NCBI GenBank assembly: GCA_016935735.1 | Contig: JAFGQK010000174.1 | Coordinates: 10,386 to 74,385, forward strand | DNA from: Spirochaetales bacterium | Lineage (GTDB): Bacteria > Spirochaetota > Spirochaetia > SZUA-6 > JAFGRV01 | Direction of reading: 5' to 3' | Length of the DNA: 64,000 nt | Part shown: positions 1-62,807 of the stretch, piece after piece | Layout: each line of letters begins with the position of its first letter | How positions within the stretch are numbered: the first letter of the stretch is position 1 | Translations under genes and position numbers: made by a program | Notes under the pieces: generated by a model | Databases searched by the model: none | What the model was told of the DNA's origin: nothing | Seen by the model: only the letters and a program-made list of their open reading frames with translations

Positions 1-980
1 AACCCTTTGTCGGCGAAAAAGAAGACGGGCACTCGGATGGTGCTGTATTAAAACCGTGCTATGATTCGTATCGCGGAATCACCGTAACCCATGGGATATG
101 TCCCCGTTATGGGGATGTGGATACATACCACATGGCGATGTGTGCTGTCGACGAAGCCTTTCGTGCGCATATAGCCCTTGGGGGAAATCCCGAAGAGGTA
201 TCTGCACTCGATAATTTCTGCTGGCCCGACCCTCTTGAATCGGAAACGAACCCGGATGCGCGCTATAAACTGGCACAACTTGTCCGGGCATGCAGGGGCC
301 TCCATGATGCATGTATGGCGTATTCAATCCCGCTTATCTCCGGTAAGGATTCGATGAAAAACGATGCAATTGTGGGTGGAAAAAAGATATCTGTCCGTCC
401 CACCCTTTTAATTTCCCTTATGGGCATTATTCCCGATATCCGGACTGCCATTACCACAGATTTCAAAAAGCCGGGAGACACTATTGTGCTTCTTGGTTAT
501 ACAAATGGCGAACTCGGGGGAACACGGTTCGAACAACTTGTCGGAAAAGAACTCGGTAATTGCCCGGAAGTAAGACCGGCTGAAGCATATCCCCTGTATG
601 AAGCAATGTACCAGGCAAATCAAAAGGGTCTTGTATCTTCATGTCATGACCTTTCGGATGGCGGGCTTGGAATTGCCCTCTGTGAATCGGCAATCGGGGG
701 AAGACTCGGTGCAGCCATATGCCTGGATGATATCCCCGGTAACGATACGTCACAACAGGAAGATGCCCGTATTCTTTTCTGCGAATCGCCATCCCGGTTC
801 CTCGTTACGCTGGCCGGGGAAAAGAAAGACATGTTCTTTGCCTTAATGAAAGATATTCCCTGTATTGCCGTCGGGCAGGTGACAGGAACCCCCCTCATCA
901 CCATAAATCGTGCAGGGAATACCCTGCTTTCAATCGATCTCGATACAATTATACGTGCATGGAAAACCCCTTTTGAATAA
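1..980 (+). CDS. purL: Phosphoribosylformylglycinamidine synthase subunit PurL, C-terminal part. The gene is 5'-truncated by the window edge.
   Basis: The reading frame stays open from nt 3 to the stop at 980, and the GTG at 117 is only the first in-frame start the ORF tool found. The HDxSDGGL motif is present as 'SSCHDLSDGGLGIALCESAIGG', and the domain is typical of the PurM-like C-terminal domain of PurL/FGAM synthase. Confidence 0.7.
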   Translation, partial: PFVGEKEDGHSDGAVLKPCYDSYRGITVTHGICPRYGDVDTYHMAMCAVDEAFRAHIALGGNPEEVSALDNFCWPDPLESETNPDARYKLAQLVRACRGLHDACMAYSIPLISGKDSMKNDAIVGGKKISVRPTLLISLMGIIPDIRTAITTDFKKPGDTIVLLGYTNGELGGTRFEQLVGKELGNCPEVRPAEAYPLYEAMYQANQKGLVSSCHDLSDGGLGIALCESAIGGRLGAAICLDDIPGNDTSQQEDARILFCESPSRFLVTLAGEKKDMFFALMKDIPCIAVGQVTGTPLITINRAGNTLLSIDLDTIIRAWKTPFE

Positions 981-992
981 CAACAGTTTTCA

Positions 993-3900
993 TTACAGCT
1001 TCTTCAGTTTGAATAATGTCAGTATATGAAACAATGCGGCATGAAGAAGGAGAACTGCCAGATTATACCAGATTGTCCTGAAAACGAAACATCCCCATAT
1101 CTTATCGTGTGCAGGAAAGATATTGACATCCGTTACCCAGTCTGTAATTCCCGCCAGATCCCTTCTTTTAAGCATTTTAAGCCATTCAACGGTTCCTGCA
1201 TCATAAAAGTCTTTATGCACCGCCTCGTTCACTTCATAATCCAGGTATTCGGTGTAGTACCCGTTCGGTCCTGCCTTAATAAATATTTCTTTAATCTCCT
1301 CCAACTCTGTCGCAGATAATCCCTTTTTTAATTCATAAACGTTCTTCATATCATCGATCGCATAGTAGTTCTTTATCGTCTCCTTAAGTTCGGGATAATC
1401 TTTTTCCAGTTCCTTTTCAATACGATCTTCAAATTCCTTCACAGATATTTTAGGGGGAAGAGGATCCTTTACCCTGGATTTGAGTTGTGCAATCGGGGTG
1501 TAGATTATTTCATTGCTGTCCCATTGCCCCTTTTCATATTCCTGTCTGATAAGCATGATACGATCCGTATCCGTTACCTGGTAGAGAGGGTTGAAGTATT
1601 CACTTCCGGCAAGAAGCCCTTCATATGACCACCGTGCAAAGGTAATATCCGAATAGACCGGGACTACCCTGTTCATCACCTTTCCCATATCGGTAAACTG
1701 GACAAACATACCCCCGAATATGATCTGGGGTATGATGATGAGCGGGATAATATTAAAAGCAGCCAGGCCGGAGCGGAGGAGGGAGGATACGAGTATTCCC
1801 AGGGCAAAAGCGGCATACGTGGTGACAAATCCCATAAGGATAAAATAAAGGTAAAAATTTCCCATTGGAAGATGACTCAATTCCGGCGGGGGAAACACCG
1901 GTATTTTAAGGATAACAAATCCCAGTGACACAAAAACCACTACCTGGAGGAATGCGAAAAGTGAAAACGTAATCGACTTGGAAATAAGATACTGCCATGG
2001 TTTTATGTCCACAATCTTTTCCCGGATTAAAATGGGCCTGTCTTTAATGACTTCATTTACACTCGCCATAAGACCGAAAAAAATAAAAATAATGGAAGAA
2101 AGAAAGAGGTATTTGGTAAACTGGGTATTGGCAAAGAACATATAAGGGGATGTCCCCCCCTTGAGCAGGAAACTCAGGATAAGCCCCAGGATAAACGGTA
2201 CCAGGAAGGTCATGATCATATTTGTCCTGTCGTTGAGTTTTTCCACAAAATTACGCCGGAATAATGAGATGAGGATTTTTAGCCTGGTAAAAATCGTTCT
2301 CTTTTTTGCAGGGGGTAGTTCTTTTGTAACTACCTGTTCTGCCTGATCTTCCTGTTCTTCCGCTGTTGTTATTTTGGAAAGGTAAAGTTGTTTCCAGTAA
2401 TCGGGATCATATCGCCGGTGGGGAAGAAGTATTTGCCTGGGTTTACGAAATAACGTACGGATAATCTTTTCGAACCCTTTGCCCCAATCCTGTTTTCTCG
2501 TATAGAGGGGGAGCCCGTCTTTTCCCAGTTCCTTTTTTTCAAGTACATTGAATATGATTTCGGGGTTTACATTCCCGCAGGACGGACATTCGATAAAATC
2601 GTCCCGTAACGGGAAGAATTTCTTAAAGTACCGGATCGCTTTCAAACTGTTACCGTAATATGCACATTTCCCCCCGACATCCAGGAGCAGAAGCTTGTCA
2701 AATTTTTTGTAGATATCCGATCCGGGTTGGTGGATGATGACGAATACAATCTTTCCCCTTTTTGAAAGGCGTGAAAGAAGGCTTATAATCATTTCCGAAT
2801 CTTTGGAAGAAAGCCCGGATGTCGGTTCATCCAGGAAAAAGAGATCCGGGTCGGCCAGGAGTTCCAGTCCGATGTTGAGTCGCTTCCTCTGTCCCCCGCT
2901 TAACACCTTCTGCACGGGATTCCCCACTTTCAGATTCTTCTTGTCCAGCAGTCCTATATCTTTCAGCACGCTTTCGATCAGGAAATTGATTTCCTTTTTG
3001 CTTCTCCCGGGCATTCGTATTTTTGCAGCATAATACAGGTTCTGGTACACGGTTAGATTCTCGAATAAAAGATCATCCTGGGGCACATACCCGATGTAAT
3101 TTCTTACTTTATCGAAATGTTCATAAAAATCCGCCCCATTCACCAACACCTGCCCGCTGTATGGTTTCAGGTATCCGAGAAGGAGCTGGAGAAGTGTTGA
3201 TTTCCCTGCCCCGCTTGCACCCATTATCCCGATCAATTCACCGCTTTTTGCTTCAAAGGAAAGATCATCAATCCCGATTTTGTTATTTTTGAATCTATAC
3301 GTAAGATGATCCACCGTAAACCGGGAAAAATGGATAATCGATGTAATGATTTTTCCTGTATCGGTATGAAAGAGCACATGGTTTTTCCCGATAATAAGGG
3401 TTGAATCCTTTTTTATTTCTTTCTTCTCTCCCTGGTGTATTTCTTTTCCATTCAGGTATATATTATACGGCAACTTTTCTGTATGAAGGGCGAAATGTAC
3501 CCCGTCTTTCACCTTGTGTAATTTGACAGGGATATAGAGTTCTTTTTCGTTCTCGTCATCAATATAGATATCGGCGAGTTGATCCTGGTCACTGATAATG
3601 AGGACATCTTTTTCAGGGGTAAACTCCTTGAGAGTATACACATCCCGGCTTTCCGTTTTAAGAATTTCCCGCAGCGGGATCTTGAAGCTGTTTTGAAGTA
3701 CAACTGAATCCGATACATTGATAAAAGAAAAAGTATCGATCTCCTGCTGATTTACCTTTATTGAACAATTTCTCTCTGTATTTTTATATAACCGGATAAT
3801 ATTCTGTGAGACATCGATCCTGAAATCTGCCCGGGCAAAATCGATCTTTTTCACCATTTTCTGGTTTTCATAGGTAAGATACATCTGCTTGCTGTACCCG

Positions 3901-4565
3901 TTCTGTTTTAGTTTAAAAAACAGGGCAATGTCACTGGTATGGATATCCTTCTTGTTTACGGAAATAACCTTTTTCCCTTCCAGGGGGACAATCTGCCCCG
4001 TATGGATGAGTTGTTCATCAACAAACATCGAAGCTTCGGGATGTTTGTTCACCAGGTAATAATGACCGTGAATCTCAAAGATTTCACAACTGCAATTATT
4101 GTATACAATATCAACGCTTTGCGGATCTTCACCGATAGCGATCTTCCTGTTTATATTGTCTGCAAAATCAAAATCATACATATCCACAAGCAGTGATTTG
4201 ATAAGGTCTGCATCTTCTTCCTGAATGGCAAAGAAACCGCACACATTATCGAAAATTAACAGTTCGCTTTCCGTAATACCGTCTGCCCCGAGGAGTTCGT
4301 ATATCTTCATGATTAACGATATCTTCCCCATATAATCCTTGCCATAGTCCCTGTTCACATTGTCCAGAATTGATTCAAGGACCGGTTTTTCTTTGAGTGC
4401 CTTGAGGAATCCCTGGAACACATCCTCGGCAACATTTTTCGGGTAGTACTGCTTGATGTATTGAGAAAAGAAATCGATCTCCTGTTCAGACACCTTGCCA
4501 TCCGCCTGGATGACATAAGCCATAAGATTGACCAGGTTCAGGTTTTCAGGTTTTATATCCGGCAT
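993..4565 (-). CDS. Multidomain ABC transporter: N-terminal TerB-like domain, two FHA-like domains, an ABC ATPase (Walker A, signature motif) and a C-terminal ABC-2 type permease.
   Basis: A Walker A motif (GASGAGKST) and the LSGGQRKR ABC signature are present, followed by 'LFFLDEPTSGLSS' as the Walker B. About six C-terminal TM helices are predicted. The N-terminus has a 'LMAYVIQADGKVSEQEIDFF' TerB/DjlA-N-like segment. Two segments resemble FHA domains ('IAIGEDPQSVDIV...HYYLVN...' and 'LIIGKNHVLF'). The probable true start is the ATG at 4565 (protein MPDIKPEN), which is preceded by a GGGGAG ribosome-binding site. The ORF-track start at 4643 is upstream of that and in frame. Confidence 0.8.
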   Translation of the reverse strand: MPDIKPENLNLVNLMAYVIQADGKVSEQEIDFFSQYIKQYYPKNVAEDVFQGFLKALKEKPVLESILDNVNRDYGKDYMGKISLIMKIYELLGADGITESELLIFDNVCGFFAIQEEDADLIKSLLVDMYDFDFADNINRKIAIGEDPQSVDIVYNNCSCEIFEIHGHYYLVNKHPEASMFVDEQLIHTGQIVPLEGKKVISVNKKDIHTSDIALFFKLKQNGYSKQMYLTYENQKMVKKIDFARADFRIDVSQNIIRLYKNTERNCSIKVNQQEIDTFSFINVSDSVVLQNSFKIPLREILKTESRDVYTLKEFTPEKDVLIISDQDQLADIYIDDENEKELYIPVKLHKVKDGVHFALHTEKLPYNIYLNGKEIHQGEKKEIKKDSTLIIGKNHVLFHTDTGKIITSIIHFSRFTVDHLTYRFKNNKIGIDDLSFEAKSGELIGIMGASGAGKSTLLQLLLGYLKPYSGQVLVNGADFYEHFDKVRNYIGYVPQDDLLFENLTVYQNLYYAAKIRMPGRSKKEINFLIESVLKDIGLLDKKNLKVGNPVQKVLSGGQRKRLNIGLELLADPDLFFLDEPTSGLSSKDSEMIISLLSRLSKRGKIVFVIIHQPGSDIYKKFDKLLLLDVGGKCAYYGNSLKAIRYFKKFFPLRDDFIECPSCGNVNPEIIFNVLEKKELGKDGLPLYTRKQDWGKGFEKIIRTLFRKPRQILLPHRRYDPDYWKQLYLSKITTAEEQEDQAEQVVTKELPPAKKRTIFTRLKILISLFRRNFVEKLNDRTNMIMTFLVPFILGLILSFLLKGGTSPYMFFANTQFTKYLFLSSIIFIFFGLMASVNEVIKDRPILIREKIVDIKPWQYLISKSITFSLFAFLQVVVFVSLGFVILKIPVFPPPELSHLPMGNFYLYFILMGFVTTYAAFALGILVSSLLRSGLAAFNIIPLIIIPQIIFGGMFVQFTDMGKVMNRVVPVYSDITFARWSYEGLLAGSEYFNPLYQVTDTDRIMLIRQEYEKGQWDSNEIIYTPIAQLKSRVKDPLPPKISVKEFEDRIEKELEKDYPELKETIKNYYAIDDMKNVYELKKGLSATELEEIKEIFIKAGPNGYYTEYLDYEVNEAVHKDFYDAGTVEWLKMLKRRDLAGITDWVTDVNIFPAHDKIWGCFVFRTIWYNLAVLLLHAALFHILTLFKLKKL

Positions 4566-4597
4566 GGTTTTTCTCCCCTGTAATAAGTGGATTTGTA

Positions 4598-4695
4598 TTG
4601 CGTTGGCAGCCAGGTTACATAGATTAGAATAAATAATAAGCACCTGGATAGTTTGTTTATTGAATTGTGGGCCTGGCCAACGTCATGATATGAAG
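4598..4695 (+). repeat. Copy A of the conserved intergenic element family (core only, lacking the long palindrome).
   Basis: The sequence 'attgcgTTGGCAGCCAGGTTAcatag...caCCTGGATAg...ttgTGGGCctgGCCaaCGTcATGatatg' aligns with the copies at 9262-9352, 21624-21767 and 30532-30674. Confidence 0.5.
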
Positions 4696-4903
4696 TATAT
4701 GCATGACAGGGGAGAAGTCAAGGAGAGGAGAGAGCGGGAAATGAGTGTGTATTTTATGGAAACAGTATTTGACAGTGCAGAATTTTAAGATTTTTGTTTC
4801 TCCCGGGAGTAAATTCGCCCGCTCGAATCTCTTTAATTCCTTGAATGGTTGTTTGACCTCTGCTTCCCTGTCGTGAACATAAATTTGAACCACTTCCGGA
4901 ATT

Positions 4904-21623: not shown

Positions 21624-21767
21624 GCTATTTTGACTTAAAATCTTGTTAAAATAACAAGATTTCAAGCAAAATAGATAAACGTTGGCCGCCAGGTTAATGA
21701 GACCAGCATAATTAAAAGAATCTGGATAGCTTGTTAATTGGGTTGTGGGCTTAAGCCTTCGTTATGG
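21624..21767 (+). repeat. Copy C of the conserved intergenic element family (degenerate palindrome plus core).
   Basis: 'ctattttgacttaaaatcttgttaaaataacaagatttcaagcaaaatag' is followed by 'ataaACGTTGGCCGCCAGGTTAatg...atCTGGATAgc...ttgTGGGCTTAAGCCttCGTTATGg'. It is about 85% identical to the copy at 30532-30674. Confidence 0.6.
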
Positions 21768-21795
21768 CATATACCCAGAAAAAGGGAGGAAAGAT

Positions 21796-23238
21796 ATGGA
21801 GAATAAATTTCCCCGGCAGCCGGTATTGTTTGTGGATGATGAAGAAGATATGCTGGACACATATGAAATGGCACTTAAGATCGATGGATTTAATAATTTT
21901 ATTTTTTTAAGTGACAGCAGAAAAGTTGCACCTGTTCTCGAGGAAGTCGAGATCTCTGTTGCTGTTATCGATCTTTTTATGCCCCATATCCGGGGAGAAG
22001 AACTGCTCAAACAATTGAAAGAAACACACCCGGAAATTCCGATTATTGTGGTAACAGGGACAAATGAGGTATGCACGGCAGTGGATTGCATGAAAGCAGG
22101 TGCTTTCGATTATATGGTGAAACCCATTGAAAATAGCCGCCTGACATCCAGCATACGAAGAGCCCTGGAAATACGTGAACTGAAAGATGAGGTCAATAAC
22201 CTTAAATTAAAAATGCTTTCACAGGAGCTACAGCACCCCGGTGTATTCAACGGGATCATTACGGTGAATTCAAAAATGAAAGCGATATTCAAATATATGG
22301 AAGCAATTGCCATTACCCCGAAACCCGTTCTCATAACCGGCGAAAGCGGTGTGGGAAAAGAATTGATTGCCCAGGCAATACATAAACTCAGTAATCGAAA
22401 TGGTGATTTTATTGCAGTGAATGTCGGCGGGCTGGATGATACGATGTTTTCCGATACGCTTTTCGGACATAAAAAGGGCGCTTTTACCGGGGCAGACAGT
22501 TCACGTCCCGGGCTTATCGAACAGGCAGCCGGGGGTACACTTTTCCTGGACGAGATCGGTGATATTGATAATGTTTCCCAGGTCAAGCTTTTAAGGCTTA
22601 TTCAGAACAGGGAATATTATCCCCTTGGTTCGGATGTGGTAAAAAGAACCGATACACGGATTGTGACCGCAACAAACTCTTTACTGGAAGCAAAACAGAA
22701 AAAGGGTCTTTTCCGTACCGATCTTTATTTCAGACTTCTTACTCATTATATAGAAATACCCCCCTTAAAGGAAAGAAGAGAGGATATCCCTTATCTGGTA
22801 AACCATTTTATAAAACAGGCTTGTGAATCAATAAGGAAAAAATCCCCGGTTGTCCCGGCAGAACTCTATACTCTCCTGTCTGCATATTATTTTCCCGGTA
22901 ATGTCCGTGAGTTACAATCGTTGATATACGATGCGGTAAGCCAGTGTGAGACACCCGTTCTTTCGCTTTCCGTGTTCAGGGAGTATTTTAAAAGAAGAAG
23001 AAAATCCATTCATGAGACGGAAGAAACCCTGCCCCGGGATTCATTCTCACTTTCCTATTCAGGCAGGTTCCCGACGATAGGGGAGGTTGAAGACTATTTA
23101 ATACCGGAAGCGATGAGGATGGCAGAAGGGAATCAATCAATTGCCGCTGTTTTCCTTGGTATCAGTCAGTCCACTTTAAGCAGACGTCTTCAGCAGAATC
23201 AGGAGAAAAATAAGGAAGAAGAAGCACCCCCCGCTTAA
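21796..23238 (+). CDS. Sigma54-dependent Fis-family response regulator (NtrC-like enhancer-binding protein).
   Basis: A receiver domain ('VAVIDLFMPH'), an AAA+ domain ('GESGVGKE') with an intact GAFTGA motif, and a C-terminal HTH are present. The start at 21796 (MENKFPRQ...) is preferred over 21745 because it follows an AAGGGAGG ribosome-binding site. Confidence 0.85.
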   Translation: MENKFPRQPVLFVDDEEDMLDTYEMALKIDGFNNFIFLSDSRKVAPVLEEVEISVAVIDLFMPHIRGEELLKQLKETHPEIPIIVVTGTNEVCTAVDCMKAGAFDYMVKPIENSRLTSSIRRALEIRELKDEVNNLKLKMLSQELQHPGVFNGIITVNSKMKAIFKYMEAIAITPKPVLITGESGVGKELIAQAIHKLSNRNGDFIAVNVGGLDDTMFSDTLFGHKKGAFTGADSSRPGLIEQAAGGTLFLDEIGDIDNVSQVKLLRLIQNREYYPLGSDVVKRTDTRIVTATNSLLEAKQKKGLFRTDLYFRLLTHYIEIPPLKERREDIPYLVNHFIKQACESIRKKSPVVPAELYTLLSAYYFPGNVRELQSLIYDAVSQCETPVLSLSVFREYFKRRRKSIHETEETLPRDSFSLSYSGRFPTIGEVEDYLIPEAMRMAEGNQSIAAVFLGISQSTLSRRLQQNQEKNKEEEAPPA

Positions 23239-31301: not shown

Positions 31302-32933
31302 GTGCCGGATCAGGAAATGGTGAACGAATATAAAACATCAATTGAACTCGCATTAAGGGAACGGGTAAAGGAACTGAAATGTCTTTATATCATTAGTTCC
31401 GAAATTGAAACAGCAGAAAACCTGGAACGGGCTTTACGGAATTCCCTACAACACCTTGTGGCAGGATTCCAGTTCCCGGAAATTGCAACAGCCAATATTA
31501 CCCTGGATAATCTTTGCTTTGGTGATTGTGATACAGGAAATAAAGACAGGGATTTATGTTTAGAAGAAAATATTTTCGTAAATAAACAAAAAAGGGGTAC
31601 GGTATCCGTTTTTTACCAGAGAAAAGAAGAATTCTTACAGGAAGAAAGAAAATTACTCAAAGAAATCTCCAGCATGATAGCCCGGGCAGTTGAAAAGCAG
31701 GATTTAAAAAACAGACTTAAAGAAAATATCGAAAAGCTGGAGGTCCTTGTAAAGGAAAAAACACTGGAAGTGGAGGAATCCAACAGAAGAAACAAAGCTT
31801 TGCAGGAACTTACGGAAGCCCTTGACCGGAGCAAGAAAGAACTCCAGACCTTTTTTGCTGCTATTACGGATAGTATTGTTGTTATCGACCAGGCATATAC
31901 CATTTCCATTTCCAATAAATTATATTTTCAAAAAGGAGACAAATGCCATAAGAAATTGTTCGGGATGGATGCTGTGTGTCCTTTTTGCCCTGCAGAAAGG
32001 GCTTTTAAGGATGCATGTTCACTTAGCATAGAAACAAAAGTAGAAAACAACTATTATCTCCTCGAAGTATACCCGATTATAAATAAATCGGGTAAAGTTA
32101 TCCGTGTTCTGGAAAAATGTAGTAATATTACCAAGGAAAAGCAAATTGAATTTCAACTTGTTCAATCATATAAACTGGCATCCCTGGGCAAGCTTGTTGC
32201 AGGGGTTGCCCATGAAATAAACAACCCGAATACCTTTATCAGGGGAAATCTGAAAATCATTAAAGAAGCCCTTTCCGATATTATTCCTATCCTGGATCAT
32301 TATAATAATGGAAAAGAGAGGGACGTTACCATAGCCAGGCTTCCTTTTACTGTGTTCAAAGAGAATATCCCGGTATTGATCGATGATATGATAAACGGGG
32401 TAAACAGGATTAAAAAGATTATCGACGGCCTCAGAAACTTTGCACGAAAAAATGAAGGATTTTTAGAGGATGATATTGATATTAACAGCATTGTATATAA
32501 TTGTCTGCGATTAATAGAAAACCAGATCAGAAAGAGTGCAGAAGTAAAACTGGAACTTGCACAGGCAATTCCCGTTTTTAAGGGCAATTTCCAGAAACTC
32601 GAACAGGTACTTGTCAATATGATCATCAATGCCTCCCAGGCGATAAGCGATCAACAGGGGATTATTGCCATTAAAACGCAGTATGATGAAAAAAAGAATG
32701 AAATGATTTTATCCATCAAAGACAATGGTACAGGAATTGATGAAAGTACGTTAAAATATATATTCGATCCTTTTTTTACAACAAAAAGGGGCAAAGGGGG
32801 CACAGGACTTGGGCTTTCAATTTCCTATGGCATTATAAAAGAACATAATGGAAGAATAGAAGTGGAATCGCAAAAAGGAAAAGGAACAACATTCACTATT
32901 TTTGTTCCGGTTACACAAGGTACTATAAAATGA
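31302..32933 (+). CDS. Cytoplasmic sensor histidine kinase (coiled-coil, PAS, HisKA, HATPase_c). No TM segment is evident.
   Basis: The H-box 'HEINNPNTFIRGN', N-box 'NMIINASQA', G1 'DNGTGI' and G2 'GTGLGLSISYGII' are present. Its stop overlaps the next gene's start. Confidence 0.85.
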   Translation: MPDQEMVNEYKTSIELALRERVKELKCLYIISSEIETAENLERALRNSLQHLVAGFQFPEIATANITLDNLCFGDCDTGNKDRDLCLEENIFVNKQKRGTVSVFYQRKEEFLQEERKLLKEISSMIARAVEKQDLKNRLKENIEKLEVLVKEKTLEVEESNRRNKALQELTEALDRSKKELQTFFAAITDSIVVIDQAYTISISNKLYFQKGDKCHKKLFGMDAVCPFCPAERAFKDACSLSIETKVENNYYLLEVYPIINKSGKVIRVLEKCSNITKEKQIEFQLVQSYKLASLGKLVAGVAHEINNPNTFIRGNLKIIKEALSDIIPILDHYNNGKERDVTIARLPFTVFKENIPVLIDDMINGVNRIKKIIDGLRNFARKNEGFLEDDIDINSIVYNCLRLIENQIRKSAEVKLELAQAIPVFKGNFQKLEQVLVNMIINASQAISDQQGIIAIKTQYDEKKNEMILSIKDNGTGIDESTLKYIFDPFFTTKRGKGGTGLGLSISYGIIKEHNGRIEVESQKGKGTTFTIFVPVTQGTIK

Positions 32934-34312
32934 AAAAAATACTGGTTATTGATGATGAACAGGCAATTCTGAATTATTTAAAAATTTTTTTATTACAATC
33001 CGGGAAATTCGATATTCACCTGCTCAAAGATAGTACGAAAGCATACAAGTTACTTAAAAATGAAAACTTTGATATCTTACTCCTTGATATGGATATGCCC
33101 AAAGTTACAGGGCTGGATATCCTGTCATTTATAAACGAAAATTCCATCAATATTATTACCATTGTTCTTACCGGGGTGGAGGATATCGATCTTGCCATAA
33201 AGGCTATGAAACTTAAAACATTTGATTACCTGCTAAAACCTGTGCAGGAAGAAAAATTCACTGATATCCTGGATATGGCAATCGATAAGGCCGAGTTTAA
33301 AAAAATGAAAGATGTTTCCAATACATCGCTTTCCATGGAAAGTCTTATTCATAAACATGCTTTTTCGAATATTATTACCTGTAATGAGGAAATGCTTAAA
33401 ATATTTCATTTTGTCGAAAAGTTTGCACTTACAGACAACAGTATATTGATATGGGGGGAAAGCGGGACAGGAAAAGAACTCATAGCCCGGGCGATACATG
33501 AAATAAGCCGGAGAAAAACGAACAAGTTCATCGCAGTGAATGCAGGTTCTTTTGCTAATGAACTGTTTTTGTCCGAATTCTTCGGTCATGAAAAAGGTGC
33601 TTTTACCGGTGCAATAAAGGATAAAAGGGGGTTTATCGAAGAAGCGGCCGGGGGTACATTGTTCCTGGATGAAATCGGGGAATTATCCCTGCCCATACAG
33701 GTAAAACTGCTCCGAGTCCTGCAGGAAGAAGAGTTTTACCGGCTGGGATCAACGGAAAACAGGAAAGCGAATGTAAGGATAATTGCAGCAACCAACAAGA
33801 ACTTGTTTGAAGAAATCAACAATGGAAATTTCAGAAAAGATCTTTTCTTCCGGCTGAATATCAATTCAATATATCTCCCCCCATTACGAGAAAGAAAAGA
33901 AGATATTACTTTACTGGCTTACTATTTCCTTGAAAAATTCAATAAAAAATATGATAAAACTATAACCACTATTTCAAGTGATGTCCTTGACCTGTTAAAA
34001 ACATATGCTTACCCGGGAAACACAAGGGAATTAATGAATATTATCAACAGTGCCATTATTATAGAGACAGGTGAGGTCCTTGAGAAAAAATCACTCCCTC
34101 ATTATTTCCTGGAAAACACCTATCCGGCGGATGTTTATCCGGCGGATAAAAACAACCGGAATAATTCCCTTAAAACCCTGGAAGAAGTGGAAAAAGAGTA
34201 TATAAAAAAGGTGCTTATAAAAACGGATATGAATAAGACAAAAGCTGCAAAGATACTCGGGATTTCAAGGGTAAGCTTGATTTCCAGGATAAAGAAGTAC
34301 GAACTTGATTGA
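32930..34312 (+). CDS. Sigma54-dependent Fis-family response regulator (NtrC-like).
   Basis: A receiver domain ('ILLLDMDMPK'), 'GESGTGKE', a GAFTGA motif and a C-terminal HTH ('KTKAAKILGISRVSL') are present. Confidence 0.9.
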   Translation: MKKILVIDDEQAILNYLKIFLLQSGKFDIHLLKDSTKAYKLLKNENFDILLLDMDMPKVTGLDILSFINENSINIITIVLTGVEDIDLAIKAMKLKTFDYLLKPVQEEKFTDILDMAIDKAEFKKMKDVSNTSLSMESLIHKHAFSNIITCNEEMLKIFHFVEKFALTDNSILIWGESGTGKELIARAIHEISRRKTNKFIAVNAGSFANELFLSEFFGHEKGAFTGAIKDKRGFIEEAAGGTLFLDEIGELSLPIQVKLLRVLQEEEFYRLGSTENRKANVRIIAATNKNLFEEINNGNFRKDLFFRLNINSIYLPPLRERKEDITLLAYYFLEKFNKKYDKTITTISSDVLDLLKTYAYPGNTRELMNIINSAIIIETGEVLEKKSLPHYFLENTYPADVYPADKNNRNNSLKTLEEVEKEYIKKVLIKTDMNKTKAAKILGISRVSLISRIKKYELD

Positions 34313-35680: not shown

Positions 35681-37177
35681 ATGAAAAGTTTAAGTTTAAA
35701 ATTAAGTGTCTTATATATATTTCTCGCTATCCTTAATATCTCGTTTTTTACTATTATTATATTTGAAAACCAGATCGATCTGATAACAGAAACATCAAAA
35801 TATCAAACTATTGATTTTGCAAATAAAATCTACTACCAATTCGAAGATCTGAAACAGGAAATAAGTGAAAGGGAAGAACCCCTCACAGAAGAAAAACTTT
35901 ATATCGATATCCGTAATGCCCTGGAAGATATTCTTTATGAGTATATTATATTCAATCAATCAGGATTGGTTCTCTATCAATCAAGTCCGGCATTCTCACT
36001 CAAAGACAAGTACAGAACAAATGGCCAGAAGGCACTGACAAAGAGCGATTTCCTGGGAGAACCTTATACCTTTGATGTTGATGAGGAAGCCCGGGAGATA
36101 CTTTTCTATATCCCGATAAACTTCCCGATACAGAACATTGAACAACTGGTACTTCTTTTTAAACTCGGGATGAAGGATATTGATAAAAAACTCACTACCC
36201 TTTACTCCCTGGTTATTGTCATTATCGTGACTATTGCCCTTTTTCATATTATCTTTGGTTTTTTCCTTCACAGGATTGTGATATCACCAATAAAGACCCT
36301 GGCCTACACAAGTACCGAGATAAGCAAAGGGGATTTATCTGCCAGGGTAAAACTCAGGAAAAAGGATGAAATAGGCCGGCTTGGTGTTGCATTCAACAAT
36401 ATGGCAGATTCTGTGCAGGAGACCATTACAAAACTCGATGAACAAAACAAGCTTATGCGCTTTGAACTTGCCATGGCGAGTGCCGTTCAAAAATCCATTT
36501 ATCCTGCTATCCGTAAAACAAAGTACTTTGATGTTGCAATTTATCACAGACCATATATGGAAGTAAGCGGGGATTATCATAACATCTATCACCTGGGAGG
36601 GAACAAATACGGGATTCTCATTGCAGATGTTGCAGGTCATGGTGTTGCCGCTGCCCTTATTACCATGCTTATAAAGGAAAGGTTCGAAGAACTTGCAGGA
36701 AAATTTGCAGATCCGAAGGAACTCCTCCAGCGGATCAATATAATATTCAAAGATTTAATGGTCGACTATGAGAAATATTTTACGGCGTTTTATCTGATTA
36801 TCAATAAAAATACCCAGGCGCTTTTCTCCAATGCCGCACACCCGAAGGCAATTCTCCTCAGGGAAAGCAATGTGTATCATCTTTCTGTAAAAGGGATACT
36901 GATAGGAGTTTCCCAGATGATGGAGGACGCATTTGAAACAAAACGAATCGCTTTAAAAACGGGGGATAAAATTATTCTTTATTCAGACGGGATAACAGAA
37001 GCGATGAATACACGGAATGAAGAATACGGGATAAAGCGGCTTACCCTGGTATCACAGAAAAATGCCCCGAAAACATGCGATGAGATAGTAAAAGCAATCA
37101 CCGCCCACTTCCACGACTTTACACAGGGAGCAAAACAGTCGGATGATGAAACCCTTCTGGTAATCGAGATTAGGTAA
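35681..37177 (+). CDS. Membrane-anchored HAMP-domain PP2C/SpoIIE-family serine phosphatase (RsbU-like).
   Basis: The N-terminal TM region is followed by a HAMP domain ('IKTLAYTSTEISKGDLSARVKL...LGVAFNNMADSV') and a PP2C domain ('EVSGDYHNI...ADVAGHGVAAAL'). Confidence 0.8.
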   Translation: MKSLSLKLSVLYIFLAILNISFFTIIIFENQIDLITETSKYQTIDFANKIYYQFEDLKQEISEREEPLTEEKLYIDIRNALEDILYEYIIFNQSGLVLYQSSPAFSLKDKYRTNGQKALTKSDFLGEPYTFDVDEEAREILFYIPINFPIQNIEQLVLLFKLGMKDIDKKLTTLYSLVIVIIVTIALFHIIFGFFLHRIVISPIKTLAYTSTEISKGDLSARVKLRKKDEIGRLGVAFNNMADSVQETITKLDEQNKLMRFELAMASAVQKSIYPAIRKTKYFDVAIYHRPYMEVSGDYHNIYHLGGNKYGILIADVAGHGVAAALITMLIKERFEELAGKFADPKELLQRINIIFKDLMVDYEKYFTAFYLIINKNTQALFSNAAHPKAILLRESNVYHLSVKGILIGVSQMMEDAFETKRIALKTGDKIILYSDGITEAMNTRNEEYGIKRLTLVSQKNAPKTCDEIVKAITAHFHDFTQGAKQSDDETLLVIEIR

Positions 37178-37183
37178 TGACAT

Positions 37184-38851
37184 ATGCCTAAGAAATTTAT
37201 AAACCTTATAACCGATCAGAAATTCATTCTTGGTATAGTACTCGCCACCCTGGTTATACTATCGGGGATGATTTTCTTAAATGATATCGTGGTCTCCATA
37301 CGCCTTCTGGAGCTCAAGGCTTATTTAAGGGATATTGACAAAAAGGCCTCGGATATGAGTACTGTAGGGATGGTAAGCAAGTTCAAACTTCACAAGAAAC
37401 TCTATGAAAATAAATTAAATGAAGATGACCTGAATAAAGAGGAGTTTAATGTAACATCCAGGCTTTTGAGTTCCGATGATCATGATGATATCCCCTTTAC
37501 AAAGTACAGAGAGCTTGCACCGCCGGTTCTTGCAGTAATGAATCTGATAAGGCTTGTGTTAAGGAAACCGCCTGTTGAATATATTCTTTCAAACAGGGAA
37601 AACTACAAACTCACCCTTGCCTACTACACTGAACGGCAAAAGAAATATAACAGGGCACTGGAGATTTACGATGACCTGTTATCGGAAGACGGGGTAAAAG
37701 CAGATCAGATTCACATTATCCTGCTCCACCAGGGATATTGCTTATCCATTATCGGTGATTATGACAGGGCAAAAGAAAAATATCTTGAAATCATAAAAAA
37801 CTTTGAAAATGAGGATGTGGCCATTACCGCAGCAAGACTTCTCCGTTTTATAGAAGAACTGGAAGCAGAGGTACGAAAGGTAAAGGAATCGGACGACAGC
37901 CCCCTTATAAAATCGGAGAAACTCTATAAACTTATTGCATTCAAGGAAGCCCTCGAAATACTGGATAAGGTGGTGGAGGAAGATGAGAAAGCATCAGACA
38001 AAGTACAGTATTTACGGGCCCGGTGCTATGAAGAAACCGGGAAAAAGGAAACATCCGTAACGATTTATCAAGACATTGTGGATAATTCCATCGAGGAAAA
38101 GCATTACGAATCGGAAACTGCAAAGCAGGCAAACCGGCGAATTTTATTAATCTCTGCAACAGAGGAAGAAGGAGAAAAAATCAAGGAATTATCCATTAAA
38201 AATCATGAACTTATCGCGGATCCTGATTTTCAGGGTCTTCTCGATACAGCGGAAAAACTGGAGACCGCTTTTACAGAAGAAGAAGAAAAATTAAAGGAAA
38301 TGGGAAAAAAAGAGTTTCCTGAAACCGGACCTACTCCCGGGAATAAGGAAGAATCCGGGGAAACCCCTTCTTCGGATGCACAGGATGAGGAACCGGGGAA
38401 AGAAATAACCGGTAAGGAACAGGAATTTAATGAATTCCTGGAAGATTCATTAAAAAATGTTGAAGAAAGAATAGACCAGTTAATAGAAGAAAAGGAAATA
38501 ACCCCTGCGCCTACACCTTTTCCAACCCCGGTTCCAGCACAGACGAAAGCAAAAGAAAGAAGAACTCCTGTCCCGACCAATGTACCGGAACCAACAGAAA
38601 AGAAAGGACCCTATAGTTTACCTTATCTGGATGATAAAGGAAATGTTGAAAAAGTGGAAGATTATAATGAAACCGGTGTCCTTACAAGGGTGAAAGAATT
38701 TAATGACAGCGGGAAGATCTTCAAACTCACCGAGTTTAATGAAACAACCGGTGAAATGAAAGGGTACTTTGTCTATGAATTCGATGAAAATGGGAATCCT
38801 GTTAAAGTGTATGCATATGATGCAGACGGGAATTTAATAAGAGATGATTAA
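37184..38851 (+). CDS. TM-anchored TPR-repeat protein with an acidic/Pro-rich linker and C-terminal YD-like repeats.
   Basis: An N-terminal TM segment is followed by TPR-like helical repeats, a 'PAPTPFPTPVPAQ' linker, and C-terminal 'YAYDADGNL'-type repeats. Confidence 0.45.
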   Translation: MPKKFINLITDQKFILGIVLATLVILSGMIFLNDIVVSIRLLELKAYLRDIDKKASDMSTVGMVSKFKLHKKLYENKLNEDDLNKEEFNVTSRLLSSDDHDDIPFTKYRELAPPVLAVMNLIRLVLRKPPVEYILSNRENYKLTLAYYTERQKKYNRALEIYDDLLSEDGVKADQIHIILLHQGYCLSIIGDYDRAKEKYLEIIKNFENEDVAITAARLLRFIEELEAEVRKVKESDDSPLIKSEKLYKLIAFKEALEILDKVVEEDEKASDKVQYLRARCYEETGKKETSVTIYQDIVDNSIEEKHYESETAKQANRRILLISATEEEGEKIKELSIKNHELIADPDFQGLLDTAEKLETAFTEEEEKLKEMGKKEFPETGPTPGNKEESGETPSSDAQDEEPGKEITGKEQEFNEFLEDSLKNVEERIDQLIEEKEITPAPTPFPTPVPAQTKAKERRTPVPTNVPEPTEKKGPYSLPYLDDKGNVEKVEDYNETGVLTRVKEFNDSGKIFKLTEFNETTGEMKGYFVYEFDENGNPVKVYAYDADGNLIRDD

Positions 38852-40974: not shown

Positions 40975-41316
40975 ATGAATGAAATAACGCTTGATATTAA
41001 AAGTAACCTTGGACAACGTTTAAAGAGAATCAGGAAACCGGAAAAACGGTGTCTTCTTTTTAAAAATAATATAATCCCTGCAGCAACGAAAATCACGATC
41101 GGCAGGGATAAAATGAATAATATTGTTATTTATGACAATATGATTTCACGTTTTCATGCAGTAATTCAAAAGATCAACCAGGCCTATTTTATTAAAGACC
41201 TTAACAGTACAAACGGGACATCGGTAAATGGGAAAATGGTGCCGGGGGGAAAGTACATACGCTTATATCCGAATGATATCATTCAATTAGGAAGAACCGA
41301 TTTATCGTTTATTTAA
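40975..41316 (+). CDS. Small FHA-domain protein.
   Basis: 'ITIGRDKMNNIVIYDNMISRFHAVIQ...LNSTNGTSVNGKMV...IIQLG' is an FHA signature. Confidence 0.7.
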   Translation: MNEITLDIKSNLGQRLKRIRKPEKRCLLFKNNIIPAATKITIGRDKMNNIVIYDNMISRFHAVIQKINQAYFIKDLNSTNGTSVNGKMVPGGKYIRLYPNDIIQLGRTDLSFI

Positions 41317-55974: not shown

Positions 55975-57342
55975 TTATAAAGTCATATCGAGAACAAATT
56001 CAATATTACTTATACCCATGGTATCCATGACAAATGACTGAACCATCTCATATCCATCCTTCATCACCTTTACCTGGTGTTCTCCTTTAACAAGGTACAC
56101 TTTCAAATAGCCCGCGGTTCCAAATACACCACTGCCTGTCAAACCGGCAAGCACCTCATCACTATACACACTCACCCCCTCAACAGGCTTCCTGTCCGCA
56201 TCCACAACAAAAACACCCACTACCCCCATAAGATGCCCTGTTATTAAAGCCCTTCTGTACAAAACAAGGGGAAGCACGACATTCCTTGTATTCATGTCCA
56301 ATACAATTTCATCTTTGCCGCATGCCCCGATAGTCTCCAGATTCCTCTGATCTATGAAGGTAAGCGTTATCGTTACAGTATCGTAGTGGAATTGTTCAAG
56401 AAGAACTTCTCCTTTATATTCTGTCCCCGAAGGATAATATGTTATTTCTTCTTCCCTCAATCCATTGTTAAAGCCGTATAACATGAAATACGTTGTAAGA
56501 TTTTCAGTACCGTCCACCTCTTCGACAATTTCCGCCGGGATAGTGAAAGCGAAAAGGGCTTCCCCGCCATCCATTGTCAGTTCAAAGGCGGTTTCTCCAT
56601 ACAATGGAACAATATCCATTGTAATGTTTCGGGCAGGAACAACATTGATAGTTTCCTGCAAAGGAACGGACTTTCCCTTTTGCGTATTCCCGTCATAAAG
56701 CTTTAACTGCAATGTATGTGCTCCCGGTTCAAGGACAATATACGTATCGGTCACCCCCGTGGCAGGGTTGAAAAAAAGGATCATCTCGTTGTTCCCGTCA
56801 AGAATATACCCGAGCCGGGGGAATTCCAGTATAGCGATTTCCTCCGGGGGGTATGCGAATCGCAAAGAAGCCAATTCTTCAAGGTCGATAGCGATAGTTG
56901 TATCGCCAATTACCGGTCTGACTGTCACGGGAACACTGTTCTCACCATCGACGATAACAACATCCGTAACCGAGCCGGCATATTGATAGTTATGAATAGG
57001 CAAATCAAACAGAAAATGATAGGTTCCCGGCGAAAGCACAATTGTTTTTTCAGATGTCATTTCAAATGTATCAACATCAACAGTAAAGTACCAGGAATAT
57101 ACCTCTTCGGTTCCTGAACCGGCATGTATTACTGTCAATTGACCGGACCCGTAATCAATCGATCGCTGTGCTCCCGGGTTTTTCAAACCGGGAGCTTTTA
57201 TGTCCTGCATCAGCATACCGGTCAGGTGATACTCAAAGCAGATACGCGGGATGTTATCGTTTTCATGAGGCAAAGGCTGGTAACATCCGGAAAAAATGGC
57301 CAATAAGAGCAAACATTTCATCATAAAAATAGATTGTTTCAT
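55975..57342 (-). CDS. Hypothetical lipoprotein.
   Basis: 'MKQSIFMMKCLLLLAIFSGC' is a lipobox. The protein is 455 aa with no recognised domain. It is the last gene of a minus-strand cluster. Confidence 0.45.
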   Translation of the reverse strand: MKQSIFMMKCLLLLAIFSGCYQPLPHENDNIPRICFEYHLTGMLMQDIKAPGLKNPGAQRSIDYGSGQLTVIHAGSGTEEVYSWYFTVDVDTFEMTSEKTIVLSPGTYHFLFDLPIHNYQYAGSVTDVVIVDGENSVPVTVRPVIGDTTIAIDLEELASLRFAYPPEEIAILEFPRLGYILDGNNEMILFFNPATGVTDTYIVLEPGAHTLQLKLYDGNTQKGKSVPLQETINVVPARNITMDIVPLYGETAFELTMDGGEALFAFTIPAEIVEEVDGTENLTTYFMLYGFNNGLREEEITYYPSGTEYKGEVLLEQFHYDTVTITLTFIDQRNLETIGACGKDEIVLDMNTRNVVLPLVLYRRALITGHLMGVVGVFVVDADRKPVEGVSVYSDEVLAGLTGSGVFGTAGYLKVYLVKGEHQVKVMKDGYEMVQSFVMDTMGISNIEFVLDMTL

Positions 57343-62790: not shown

Positions 62791-62807
62791 ATATAACCTC
62801 CTTTTTA

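Follow-up and report, generated by a model that had tools for sequence, protein, structure and literature searches.

To our knowledge, Rv1747 of Mycobacterium tuberculosis is the only well-studied bacterial ABC exporter that bears FHA domains, in the order FHA-FHA-ABC ATPase-ABC-2. Its two FHA domains are canonical phosphothreonine-binding modules, both of which bind the phosphopeptides of the phospho-acceptors Thr-150 and Thr-208, and its operon includes the kinase PknF (PMC3138270). Tandem FHA domains also form the N-terminus of EssC/YukB, the type VIIb secretion ATPase, where they have been documented without phosphothreonine-binding residues (PMC4925161). Exporters of the ABCG/White, PDR, and ABCA classes (ABCG2, ABCG5/8, Cdr1) place the ATPase before a membrane domain of the ABC2_membrane fold. 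TerB domains are found in tellurite-resistance and anti-phage systems. TerB proteins have been reported as inner-membrane-associated and amphitropic, and membrane surveillance has been proposed for TerB domains, which occur in validated defence systems.

Here we describe a gene of an uncultured spirochaete, found in a 64-kb window (the whole stretch of DNA analysed), whose product joins in a single polypeptide a TerB domain, three FHA-like modules, an ABC ATPase, and an ABC-2 membrane part whose TM5-TM6 loop contains a folded domain. We put at roughly 55% the probability that it is a half-transporter of the ABCG/PDR/ABCA class, most likely a homodimeric ATP-driven exporter or flippase, with a regulatory N-terminal arm and a periplasmic TM5-TM6 cap. 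It belongs to a rare, uncharacterized family, and its FHA-like modules show no sign of phosphothreonine control.

Results

Gene and reading frame

The features of the gene are collected in Table 1. Translation from the ATG at 4565-4563 on the reverse strand gave 1190 aa, one fewer than the initial annotation had stated, and the product matched P0001 (annotated 'MAG: ATP-binding cassette domain-containing protein [Spirochaetales bacterium]') at 100% identity. Fourteen homologs (35-84% identity) were colinear with it over 97-100% of the length, and no frameshift is present. The single reading frame, the Shine-Dalgarno sequence, and these full-length homologs bear out the initial annotation in treating 993-4565 as one gene, and the domain order that it gave (TerB, FHA-like, ABC ATPase, ABC-2 permease) was also right. 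No Rfam family matched the 5' region. The gene is solitary, flanked by a GNAT acetyltransferase gene and by a convergent AIR-synthase-like gene lying 12 nt from its stop codon; the neighbours, which further include valyl-tRNA synthetase and NUDIX genes, are of the housekeeping kind.

Table 1. Features of the gene and its product (positions in the 64-kb window)
Feature	Positions	Strand	Residues	Basis and remarks
Complete CDS	993..4565 (including stop)	-	1190 codons + stop	ORF list and translation
TerB domain	4200..4541	-	9-122	PF05099, 31.1 bits (cut-off 24.4)
FHA-like module 1	3939..4151	-	139-209	AF2 model, block pLDDT 82-93
FHA-like module 2	3666..3893	-	225-300	AF2 model, block pLDDT 84-95
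FHA-like module 3	3339..3641	-	309-409	AF2 model
ABC nucleotide-binding domain	2616..3317	-	417-650	PF00005 at 433-583, E 5.2e-32
Conserved ECPSCGNVNPEIIF motif	2550..2591	-	659-672	Includes a Cys-x-x-Cys pair
Membrane domain: elbow helix, TM1-TM5, re-entrant segment	1611..2270	-	766-985	PF01061, E 1.4e-19; hydropathy
Loop domain between TM5 and TM6 (EL3)	1086..1610	-	986-1160	Folded alpha/beta domain
TM6	1002..1076	-	1164-1188	Hydropathy; long helix, pLDDT 94-96
Shine-Dalgarno-like GGGGAG	4573..4578	-		7 nt 5' of the ATG; direct sequence reading
Sigma-70-like promoter candidate TTGACT-16-TATACT	4694..4721	-		10/12 matches, about 130 nt 5' of the start codon; sigma-70-like sites no more numerous in this region than in shuffled sequence

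An ABCG-type core with a folded TM5-TM6 domain

The ATPase domain is complete, as had been proposed, and holds every hallmark of the PF00005 superfamily: Walker A (GASGAGKST), the Q-loop (Q496), an LSGGQ signature (LSGGQRKR), Walker B with its catalytic Glu (LFFLDEPT), and the H-loop (H612). The residues G449/G452/G454/K455/T457, Q496, S556-G558, D579/E580, and H612 were invariant in 120 homologs. With this domain N-terminal to a six-TM ABC-2 domain, the protein has the layout of an ABCG/White-type (ABC-2, type V) half-transporter, and the best matches of its ABC part among solved structures were Cdr1/Pdr5, ABCA3/4/1, and ABCG1/8/2. The ABCG2 alignment (positions 28-545 of the ABC part) ran through the ATPase domain and on through TM1-TM5. 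TIGR00955 scored 266 bits over residues 421-986, far under its curated cut-off of 736, which makes the protein a relative of the ABCG class outside the eukaryote-centred subfamily. Downstream of the ATPase domain, the ECPSCGNVNPEIIF motif, which presumably corresponds in position to the 'CP...NPADF' region of ABCG proteins, was strongly conserved (C660 and C663 in 118, N665 in 114, P668 in 117, and E669 in 114 of the 120 homologs).

The match to PF01061 confirms the ABC-2 permease previously assigned, and hydropathy located its six hydrophobic segments, the last of which is followed by a basic C-terminal tail, KLKKL. The description as a six-helix permease is correct for the count of helices and incomplete otherwise, since a folded domain of about 175 residues (modelled pLDDT 87) splits TM5 from TM6. 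By the positive-inside rule and analogy with ABCG proteins, this domain is inferred to face the periplasm. No PDB fold matched it. The large TM5-TM6 domain and the third FHA-like module were both overlooked in the initial annotation. A conserved Cys-Pro...Asn-Pro-Glu after the ATPase domain and a TM5-TM6 extracytoplasmic loop that is the largest are shared with the ABCG, PDR, and ABCA exporters, from which the protein differs by the 415-residue, presumably regulatory N-terminus and by the autonomy of the loop domain with its lack of a PDB counterpart.

Three FHA-like modules that profiles fail to recognize

In the profile searches TerB was found, whereas neither FHA (PF00498) nor Yop-YscD_cpl profiles matched residues 127-416 of the 1190-aa protein even at E ≤ 10. 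The FHA-like fold itself is supported by the beta-sandwich architecture and by Foldseek, whose top matches were the tandem FHA domains of YukB/EssC (probability 0.90-0.99); the modules number three rather than the two first reported. Module 1 is family-wide, and homolog occupancy indicated that it is the sole module of the Bacteroidota-type homologs of about 1000 aa. It aligned in the FHA register with the true FHA protein of the window (hhalign probability 47.6%), and its region drew weak, sub-threshold FHA-clan Pfam matches in P0138 and P0128 (E 0.03-0.04). Module 3 probably arose as a copy of module 1 that has since diverged (hhalign probability 92.9%, E 3.6e-7), and FHA and Yop-YscD_cpl matches in P0150, P0142, and P0138 fell on query residues 316-401 within it. 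Module 2, a compact seven-strand beta module, showed no sequence relation to modules 1 and 3 by hhalign. It matched no more than the C-terminal two-thirds of the FHA profile, and only through homologs: a Pfam FHA match in P0137 (23.4 bits against a cut-off of 20.7) and a Yop-YscD_cpl match in P0134 both corresponded to query residues 248-299. Short helices (residues 91-102 and 179-185 of the modelled segment) connect the modules at a block pLDDT of about 70-95. FHA-clan Pfam matches at E ≤ 0.01 occurred in only 3 of 35 clade members, and modules of this kind escape Pfam in most members.

EssC, the closest structural match, is built differently: its ATPase is of the FtsK/SpoIIIE type rather than ABC, it has two FHA modules against three here, and it has no TerB domain. 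No sequence similarity between EssC and the spirochaete protein was detectable.

Phosphothreonine binding and phospho-regulation

The initial annotation had suggested phospho-regulated export on the model of Rv1747. Under that scheme, the transporter or one of its partners would be phosphorylated by a Ser/Thr kinase, and binding of the phosphothreonine by the FHA modules would switch export on, with the SpoIIE-type phosphatase and small FHA protein of the window sharing the circuit. FHA-regulated ABC exporters do exist (Rv1747; PMC3138270), module 2 of P0137 exceeds the Pfam FHA cut-off, and the window does encode a genuine FHA protein, as had been noted (40975-41316, 79 bits), as well as a HAMP-SpoIIE phosphatase (35681-37177). 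The residues of the modules argue against it. At the FHA Gly-Arg position, module 1 has G-E here and K/E/D/G across the 120 homologs, while module 3 has S-D here and mostly N (N/D) in the wider clade; neither Ser-x-x-His nor Asn-Gly is conserved. Judged by alignment rather than by superposing the binding pocket, phosphothreonine binding is therefore unlikely: the Arg is replaced in modules 1 and 3, while Ser-x-x-His and the Asn are unrecognizable. A phospho-ligand site of a non-canonical kind is possible.

No Hanks-type kinase (Pkinase) domain was found in 40 scanned ORFs of at least 150 aa in the window, a scan that left out six overlapping ORFs of that size, and no Ser/Thr kinase flanked the gene in six homolog loci. 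The FHA protein and the phosphatase, which had been cited as co-occurring with the transporter, lie 31-36 kb from it with housekeeping genes between, and co-occurrence inside 64 kb is no evidence of linkage. HAMP-SpoIIE proteins usually act in partner-switching cascades. The long, disordered, Thr-rich inter-module linker of the Rv1747 type is absent as well, the confident model containing no long low-confidence linker. Taken with the missing FHA profile match, these results make an Rv1747-type switch improbable. The comparison with Rv1747 holds at the level of FHA folds ahead of an ABCG-like half-transporter; it ends with the three degenerate modules, the extra TerB domain, the lack of a nearby kinase, and the TM5-TM6 domain of about 175 aa.

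TerB and the distribution of the family

The TerB-like N-terminal domain proposed earlier was confirmed above the curated cut-off, by a PF05099 match that runs from position 2 to position 116 of the 118-position profile. Two Asp-Gly-x(4,5)-Glu motifs lie within the domain (ADGKVSEQE and ADGITESE), and its acidic residues are largely kept (D22 in 91, E29 in 98, and D95 in 102 of the 120 homologs). A GAF domain is present in 2 of 35 members of the three-module clade, which we take from reading the N-terminal sequences to be P0123 and P0129. In these two, GAF appears to replace TerB, a pattern that fits the expectation for an interchangeable sensor.

The presence of TerB in validated defence systems with a proposed role in membrane surveillance could suggest an anti-phage or membrane-surveillance system analogous to Bunzi, Shango, or Dionysus. 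PADLOC models, however, matched the generic ATPase domain only and left the N-terminal 420 aa unmatched, the neighbours are housekeeping genes with no defence island, and the family stays conserved and colinear from one phylum to another, all of which renders this reading highly improbable.

The three-module form is rare: its mid-region profile matched 45 clusters among 1.84 billion representatives. The mid-region (about 290 aa) is colinear with the clade profile and had a BLAST match in 15 of the 120 listed homologs, and residues 211-410, which hold modules 2 and 3, are inserted only in the Spirochaetales/Cloacimonadota clade. All close relatives are metagenome-assembled sequences. The TerB-ABC architecture as such is widespread (more than 100 matches, mostly Bacteroidota-type with one module), which the initial annotation had missed. 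These Bacteroidota-type proteins (about 1000-1030 aa, e.g., from Chryseosolibacter indicus), annotated merely as 'ATP-binding cassette domain-containing protein', belong to the same family and share TerB, module 1, the ATPase, the ABC-2 domain, the long TM5-TM6 loop, and the CPxCGNVNPE motif; they differ by having one FHA-like module instead of three. Their gene neighbours differ too, with a DUF218 gene on the downstream side and, on the upstream side, a gene for an unrelated lipoprotein.

Partner genes of the relatives

A conserved gene pair encoding a lipoprotein and a secreted protein lies directly downstream in six distinct relatives' loci (L001, L002, L003/L004, L006, L007, and L012/L013). 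The partner genes of different relatives are homologous to one another, and genes for PrsW-type and trypsin-type proteases stand upstream in two of these six loci. Together with the large, well-folded, and conserved loop domain, this arrangement raises the alternative of a mechanotransducer rather than an exporter, in which ATP hydrolysis would move the periplasmic TM5-TM6 domain, as in FtsEX or LolCDE, to act on the lipoprotein and secreted protein and perhaps on the neighbouring PrsW and trypsin-like proteases. The mechanotransducing ABC systems known to us, however, are built on the MacB/FtsX fold, in which TM1 and TM2 flank the periplasmic domain, unlike the ABC-2/ABCG fold found here, and the ABCG-type proteins whose structures have been solved act as exporters or floppases. 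In addition, the window gene and its 84% ortholog have no adjacent partners and are nevertheless under strong purifying selection, which indicates a function independent of linked partners. We regard mechanotransduction as unlikely, if credible.

In the 64-kb window, tblastn found no homolog of the lipoprotein or secreted-protein partners, and partner genes are also absent beside the gene in the closest relative (L005). This absence, along with the close spacing of the stop codon and the convergent gene, could mark a decaying orphan, a non-functional remnant of the relatives' multi-gene system. Decay is largely refuted by a dN/dS of 0.07 overall against the 84% ortholog, which likewise lacks adjacent partners, and by per-domain values of 0.03-0.16 that indicate purifying selection in each domain. 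The uninterrupted 1190-codon reading frame, the intact catalytic motifs, and the good Shine-Dalgarno sequence also speak against it, leaving it only the slightest probability.

Discussion

The ATPase motifs, the ABCG-type layout, and the solved-structure matches support an exporter or flippase of the ABCG/PDR/ABCA class, and its substrate is predicted to be hydrophobic or envelope-bound. About 415 cytoplasmic residues precede the ATPase domain, first TerB and then three FHA-fold modules in a rigid stack. From architecture alone, a regulatory role is inferred for this arm, which would serve as an input outside the transport path with TerB as the sensing element. The FHA-like modules probably have a phospho-independent role in protein-protein contacts or as spacers, similar to the paired FHA domains of EssC/YukB, and may connect sensor and ATPase dimer through autoinhibition, oligomerization, or partner recruitment. 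On the far side of the membrane, the TM5-TM6 domain would cap the exit of the translocation path, and in most relatives it probably meets the lipoprotein and the small secreted protein encoded downstream.

A more elaborate reading, which we hold to be rather doubtful, is that of a ligand-gated envelope machine instead of a plain exporter, in which an interchangeable cytoplasmic sensor (TerB or, in some members, GAF) would gate the ABCG-type ATPase via the phospho-independent FHA stack and the TM5-TM6 domain would serve a dedicated lipoprotein/secreted-protein pair, either by passing substrate to it or by moving it mechanically. The copy in the window would then represent a lineage whose partners have been uncoupled or relocated. 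If true, Spirochaetota and Cloacimonadota would possess a trans-envelope system not described before.

For annotation, the FHA-like modules teach that an FHA fold alone does not equal phospho-signalling and that the binding residues should be checked first. Fusions of regulatory domains to ABC exporters offer a compact view of the way transport can be turned on or off, and the spirochaete protein displays a different solution from that of Rv1747 on the same chassis, with TerB as the apparent input and degenerate FHA folds. If TerB gates the ATPase, ATPase activity would provide a simple read-out for what TerB senses. The TM5-TM6 domain without a solved-structure match and the partner genes of the relatives mark an uncharacterized envelope function in poorly studied phyla.

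Results

The transporter gene lies within a single uninterrupted minus-strand ORF, and its product of 1190 residues, followed by a stop codon, is 100% identical to P0001, the window's own protein in the database, where it is named 'MAG: ATP-binding cassette domain-containing protein [Spirochaetales bacterium]'. A longer GTG start at 4643 was rejected, as homologs begin at the ATG and a Shine-Dalgarno sequence precedes that codon; plus-strand ORFs of 85-99 aa overlapping the gene interior were likewise discarded, being without support. A word-indexed protein search with residues 1-420 alone gave no match, which we take for a false negative of its word filter and not for a sign of rarity, given that the identical protein is in the database. 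A protein search retrieved 14 other full-length homologs (35-84% identity), and because these span 97-100% of the query in colinear fashion, a separate N-terminal gene joined by a frameshift was ruled out and a frameshift or gene-fusion artefact was rejected. When the gene was codon-aligned with that of the 84% ortholog, dN/dS came to 0.07 overall and 0.03-0.16 for the separate domains; purifying selection acts on all parts of the protein.

Features of the transporter, its relatives' loci and the window (window coordinates unless residues or a relative's locus, L001 to L012, are indicated)
Feature	Position	Strand	Evidence or content
ORF containing the gene	4643 to 993	-	ORF list of the window
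Start codon ATG	4565-4563	-	read from sequence
Shine-Dalgarno GGGGAG	4578-4573	-	before ATG
TerB (PF05099)	residues 9-122		Pfam, 31.1 bits vs curated cut-off 24.4
ABC_tran	residues 433-583		Pfam, E 5e-32
ABC2_membrane	residues 766-985		Pfam, E 1e-19
ABC2_membrane_3	residues 816-967		Pfam, E 1e-10
Motif ECPSCGNVNPEIIF	residues 659-672; 2550-2591	-	nearly invariant
Modelled modules 1, 2, 3	residues 139-209, 225-300, 309-409		AlphaFold2
Module 1 matches	query residues 143-205		homologs P0138, P0128; both weak, E 0.03-0.04
Module 2 matches	query residues 248-299		homologs P0137 (FHA 23.4 bits, over 20.7 cut-off), P0134
Module 3 matches	query residues 316-401		homologs P0150, P0142, P0138
Lipoprotein and secreted-protein pair	L001:3868-5141; L002:5839-7135; L003:10525-11878; L006:10713-11994; L007:10757-12053; L012:7941-9146		relatives' loci
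~700-aa/~300-aa and protease genes	L001:5202-8283; L006:12088-15208; L007:12172-14199; L006:4110-6975; L007:2767-5997		relatives' loci
HAMP-SpoIIE (PP2C-type) phosphatase	35681-37177	+
Phosphatase and TPR genes together	35681-38851	+
FHA protein, 113 aa	40975-41316	+	79 bits
PEGA/FGE-sulfatase protein	53777-55918	+
1798-aa ORF	57436-62832	-	TTG start
ORFs flanking the 1798-aa ORF	55975-57342; 62808-63821		no Pfam match
Signalling genes	21745-23238; 31302-34312; 50316-52730 (+)

Pfam profiles supported three domains of the initial annotation, namely the N-terminal TerB domain, which scored above its cut-off, a complete ABC nucleotide-binding domain, in which all catalytic motifs were present, and the ABC-2 membrane domain. 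Across 120 aligned homologs, the Walker A, Q-loop, signature, Walker B and H-loop residues did not vary. The top NCBIfam match was TIGR00955 (White/ABCG 'pigment precursor permease' subfamily; residues 421-986), at 266 bits and far under the 736-bit cut-off. The solved structures nearest to the ABC part by sequence were Cdr1/Pdr5, ABCA3/4/1 and ABCG1/8/2, with the ABCG2 alignment spanning both the ATPase and the membrane domain. Directly after the ATPase domain, the motif ECPSCGNVNPEIIF lies where, in our reading, ABCG proteins have their 'CP...NPADF' region. Both of its cysteines occur in 118 of the 120 homologs and are often missing from more distant members of the three-module clade, the relatives with a mid-region of ~290 aa (present in 15/35). 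With two cysteines per protomer, this Cys-x-x-Cys pair could form a four-Cys metal site in a homodimer.

Hydropathy placed five helices within residues 781-958 and a sixth at 1164-1188; the six-helix permease described earlier is incomplete as a description, in that it overlooked a large folded domain between TM5 and TM6. The model of residues 955-1190, built with 36 homologs, was confident and alpha/beta (pLDDT 87.2, pTM 0.75), and the modelled TM5-TM6 domain is without a fold match in the PDB. Basic charge is found before TM1, between TM2 and TM3, and after TM6, a distribution that, together with the ABCG analogy, would place residues 986-1160 outside the cytoplasm.

Residues 127-416 had no Pfam match even at E <= 10, so that the domain search returned the proposed TerB domain of the N-terminus and not the proposed FHA domains. 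Because the mid-region profile gave no meaningful match against PDB sequences either, it is the predicted fold and the Pfam matches of homologs that carry the FHA assignment. With 17 homologs as input, AlphaFold2 gave a confident model of residues 120-420 (mean pLDDT 83.9) that was almost all beta and resolved three modules with short helices between them. Independently, the top-ranked structures in Foldseek were the YukB and EssC tandem FHA N-termini, and single FHA domains came next (probability 0.97-1.0). In hhalign profile-profile comparison, modules 1 and 3 aligned in FHA register (probability 92.9%, E 3.6e-7). Module 1 also aligned in register with the window's true FHA protein, at a probability of 47.6% and with the 17-sequence profile only; that FHA sequence gave weak matches (2-11%) to module 2, module 3 and the 120-sequence module 1 profile, and its sole phmmer match in the clade was P0161, a 225-aa fragment. 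In the wider three-module clade, Pfam detected FHA in 3/35 members (best E 3.7e-7) and Yop-YscD_cpl in 3/35. When ten homolog N-termini were scanned singly and their matches transferred via the alignment, all three modules were hit, and these hits together with the relation between modules 1 and 3 indicate three tandem FHA-like modules, of which module 2 is the most reduced. The FHA-like fold proposed earlier is therefore borne out, with a count of three rather than two.

The TerB-ABC-ABC2 architecture is common, with well over 100 matches, mostly of ~1000-1030 aa, in Bacteroidota, Cyclobacteriaceae and similar groups. Walker A lies at residue ~265-290 in these homologs versus 449 in the window protein; the one module they possess aligns to module 1, and residues 211-410, comprising modules 2 and 3, constitute an insertion. 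Close relatives of the window protein are all from uncultured organisms, and a one-module ortholog, P0112, belongs to the cultured Bacteroidota species Chryseosolibacter indicus. The three-module form is rare: a mid-region profile search (E <= 1e-3) of 1.84 billion representatives clustered at 50% identity found 45 clusters, nearly all of 1050-1300 aa, and a tighter mid-region alignment searched against species-representative genomes found one locus, the partial contig of homolog P0010. TerB was detectable in 21 of 35 three-module members, and a GAF domain was detected at the N-terminus of two of the 35 (best E 3.9e-17). In the apparent GAF carriers, P0123 and P0129, which were picked by reading the sequences rather than by individual scan, a GAF-like region appears to replace TerB ahead of module 1, as would be expected of an interchangeable sensory input.

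The residues associated with phosphothreonine binding were poorly retained in the modules. At the FHA Gly-Arg position, module 1 has Gly-Glu (K, E, D or G in the 120 homologs) and module 3 has Ser-Asp (mostly Asn in the wider clade); the Ser-x-x-His loop of module 1 is deleted or unconserved, and the Asn-Gly loop shows no conserved Asn. Judged from these alignments, the modules would not be phosphothreonine readers. Their nearest structural relatives by Foldseek, the tandem FHA domains of EssC/YukB, are documented to have FHA folds without the phosphothreonine-binding residues, and a search for phospho-dependent partners of these domains found none (PMC4925161). In mycobacterial Rv1747, by contrast, both FHA domains bind phosphothreonine peptides (Thr-150, Thr-208), and the operon is shared with the kinase PknF (PMC3138270). 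A Hanks kinase domain was found in none of the 40 scanned window ORFs of at least 150 aa, a set from which six such ORFs overlapping larger ones were left out. The genuine FHA protein and the HAMP-SpoIIE phosphatase, whose co-occurrence had suggested phospho-regulated export, are encoded more than 30 kb from the transporter gene with unrelated genes in between. With no kinase in the scanned ORFs and the FHA and phosphatase genes distant, a phospho-circuit has no support beyond the fold, and regulation of the Rv1747 kind appears distinctly improbable. The phosphatase gene is itself followed 6 nt on by a gene for a 555-aa TPR protein, with the FHA gene ~2 kb past the latter; a kinase was not found between or near these genes.

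In six distinct three-module loci (those of P0003, P0006, P0015, P0005, P0009 and the distant P0016), the transporter gene is immediately followed by a lipoprotein gene and a secreted-protein gene. The lipoproteins are helical and 259-288 aa long. Those of the five closer loci have a signal peptide with a lipobox Cys and are 30-54% identical to one another (E 1e-32 to 1e-90); the distant L012 copy matches them at E 3e-5 to 2e-11 with 20-24% identity. Among the secreted proteins (130-176 aa), identity is 23-39% (E 7e-7 to 1e-32), the L012 copy matching only that of L006 (E 3e-5). A ~700-aa multi-pass membrane protein is common to three relatives' loci (43-49% identity), two of which also encode a ~300-aa downstream protein, and PrsW-type and trypsin-type protease genes lie upstream in two; together with the pair, these genes suggest a larger conserved envelope gene cluster. 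Pfam gave no match for the lipoprotein, secreted, ~700-aa or ~300-aa proteins. Bacteroidota-type loci, from the ~1000-1030-aa relatives with one module, have other neighbours: a DUF218 gene lies on the downstream side, and the lipoprotein gene upstream is an unrelated one. None of the partner genes was found downstream of the transporter or elsewhere in the 64-kb window, and none is adjacent in the closest relative, P0002 (locus L005); this lineage has therefore either lost or relocated them. A mechanotransducer acting on periplasmic partners would agree with the linkage seen in relatives and less well with its absence here, and we consider it unlikely. The missing partners might also point to a decaying orphan, yet the dN/dS values place the transporter under selection still, which makes decay scarcely credible.

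The transporter gene stands alone, with GNAT acetyltransferase, NUDIX hydrolase and valyl-tRNA synthetase genes upstream on the same strand and a convergent AIR-synthase-related gene 12 nt downstream. A promoter-like site lies ~130 nt 5' of the start, although such sites were no commoner than in shuffled sequence, as was true of promoter and terminator counts in general. The 5' region matched no Rfam family, and thus no riboswitch or other RNA hinting at a substrate. PADLOC assigned no defence-system membership; this counts against phage defence of the TerB type, which the TerB domain might bring to mind and which we regard as very improbable. Elsewhere, the window is dense in signalling genes, including two response-regulator-type sigma-54 activators (one directly 3' of a histidine kinase) and another histidine kinase of 804 aa. 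A 713-aa protein combines PEGA repeats with a C-terminal FGE-sulfatase domain; comparable architectures elsewhere in bacteria often begin with a Ser/Thr kinase domain, and its first ~280 residues had no match at E <= 1e-4, with no such kinase domain detectable. The 1798-aa ORF, otherwise unannotatable, has a marginal Big_13 (bacterial Ig-like) match alone, and with its flanks might make up a locus for a giant surface protein.

Discussion

The gene encodes an intact ABCG-class half-transporter with a cytoplasmic arm of TerB and three FHA-fold modules and a folded domain between TM5 and TM6, an architecture that we regard as nearly certain. We class the protein as an FHA-decorated ABCG-like exporter. 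In the picture that we favour, at a probability slightly better than even (roughly 0.55), it would be a homodimeric exporter or flippase with a regulatory N-terminal arm: TerB, which has been reported as membrane-associated and amphitropic, would be the sensor, the degenerate FHA modules would be phospho-independent coupling or interaction units, and the outer TM5-TM6 domain would provide a docking or exit cap.

The gene was already in databases under its generic name, as was the TerB-ABC combination in precomputed Pfam annotations, and no published description of this architecture turned up in the literature on TerB combined with ABC transporters or FHA domains. New here are three degenerate FHA-fold modules that Pfam does not see, two of them a clade-specific insertion, as well as the TM5-TM6 domain without a fold match, the apparent GAF sensor swap and the conserved partner genes in relatives. 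Mechanistically the protein holds no surprise, but it gives TerB function and FHA modules that would act independently of phosphorylation a clean, testable entry point.
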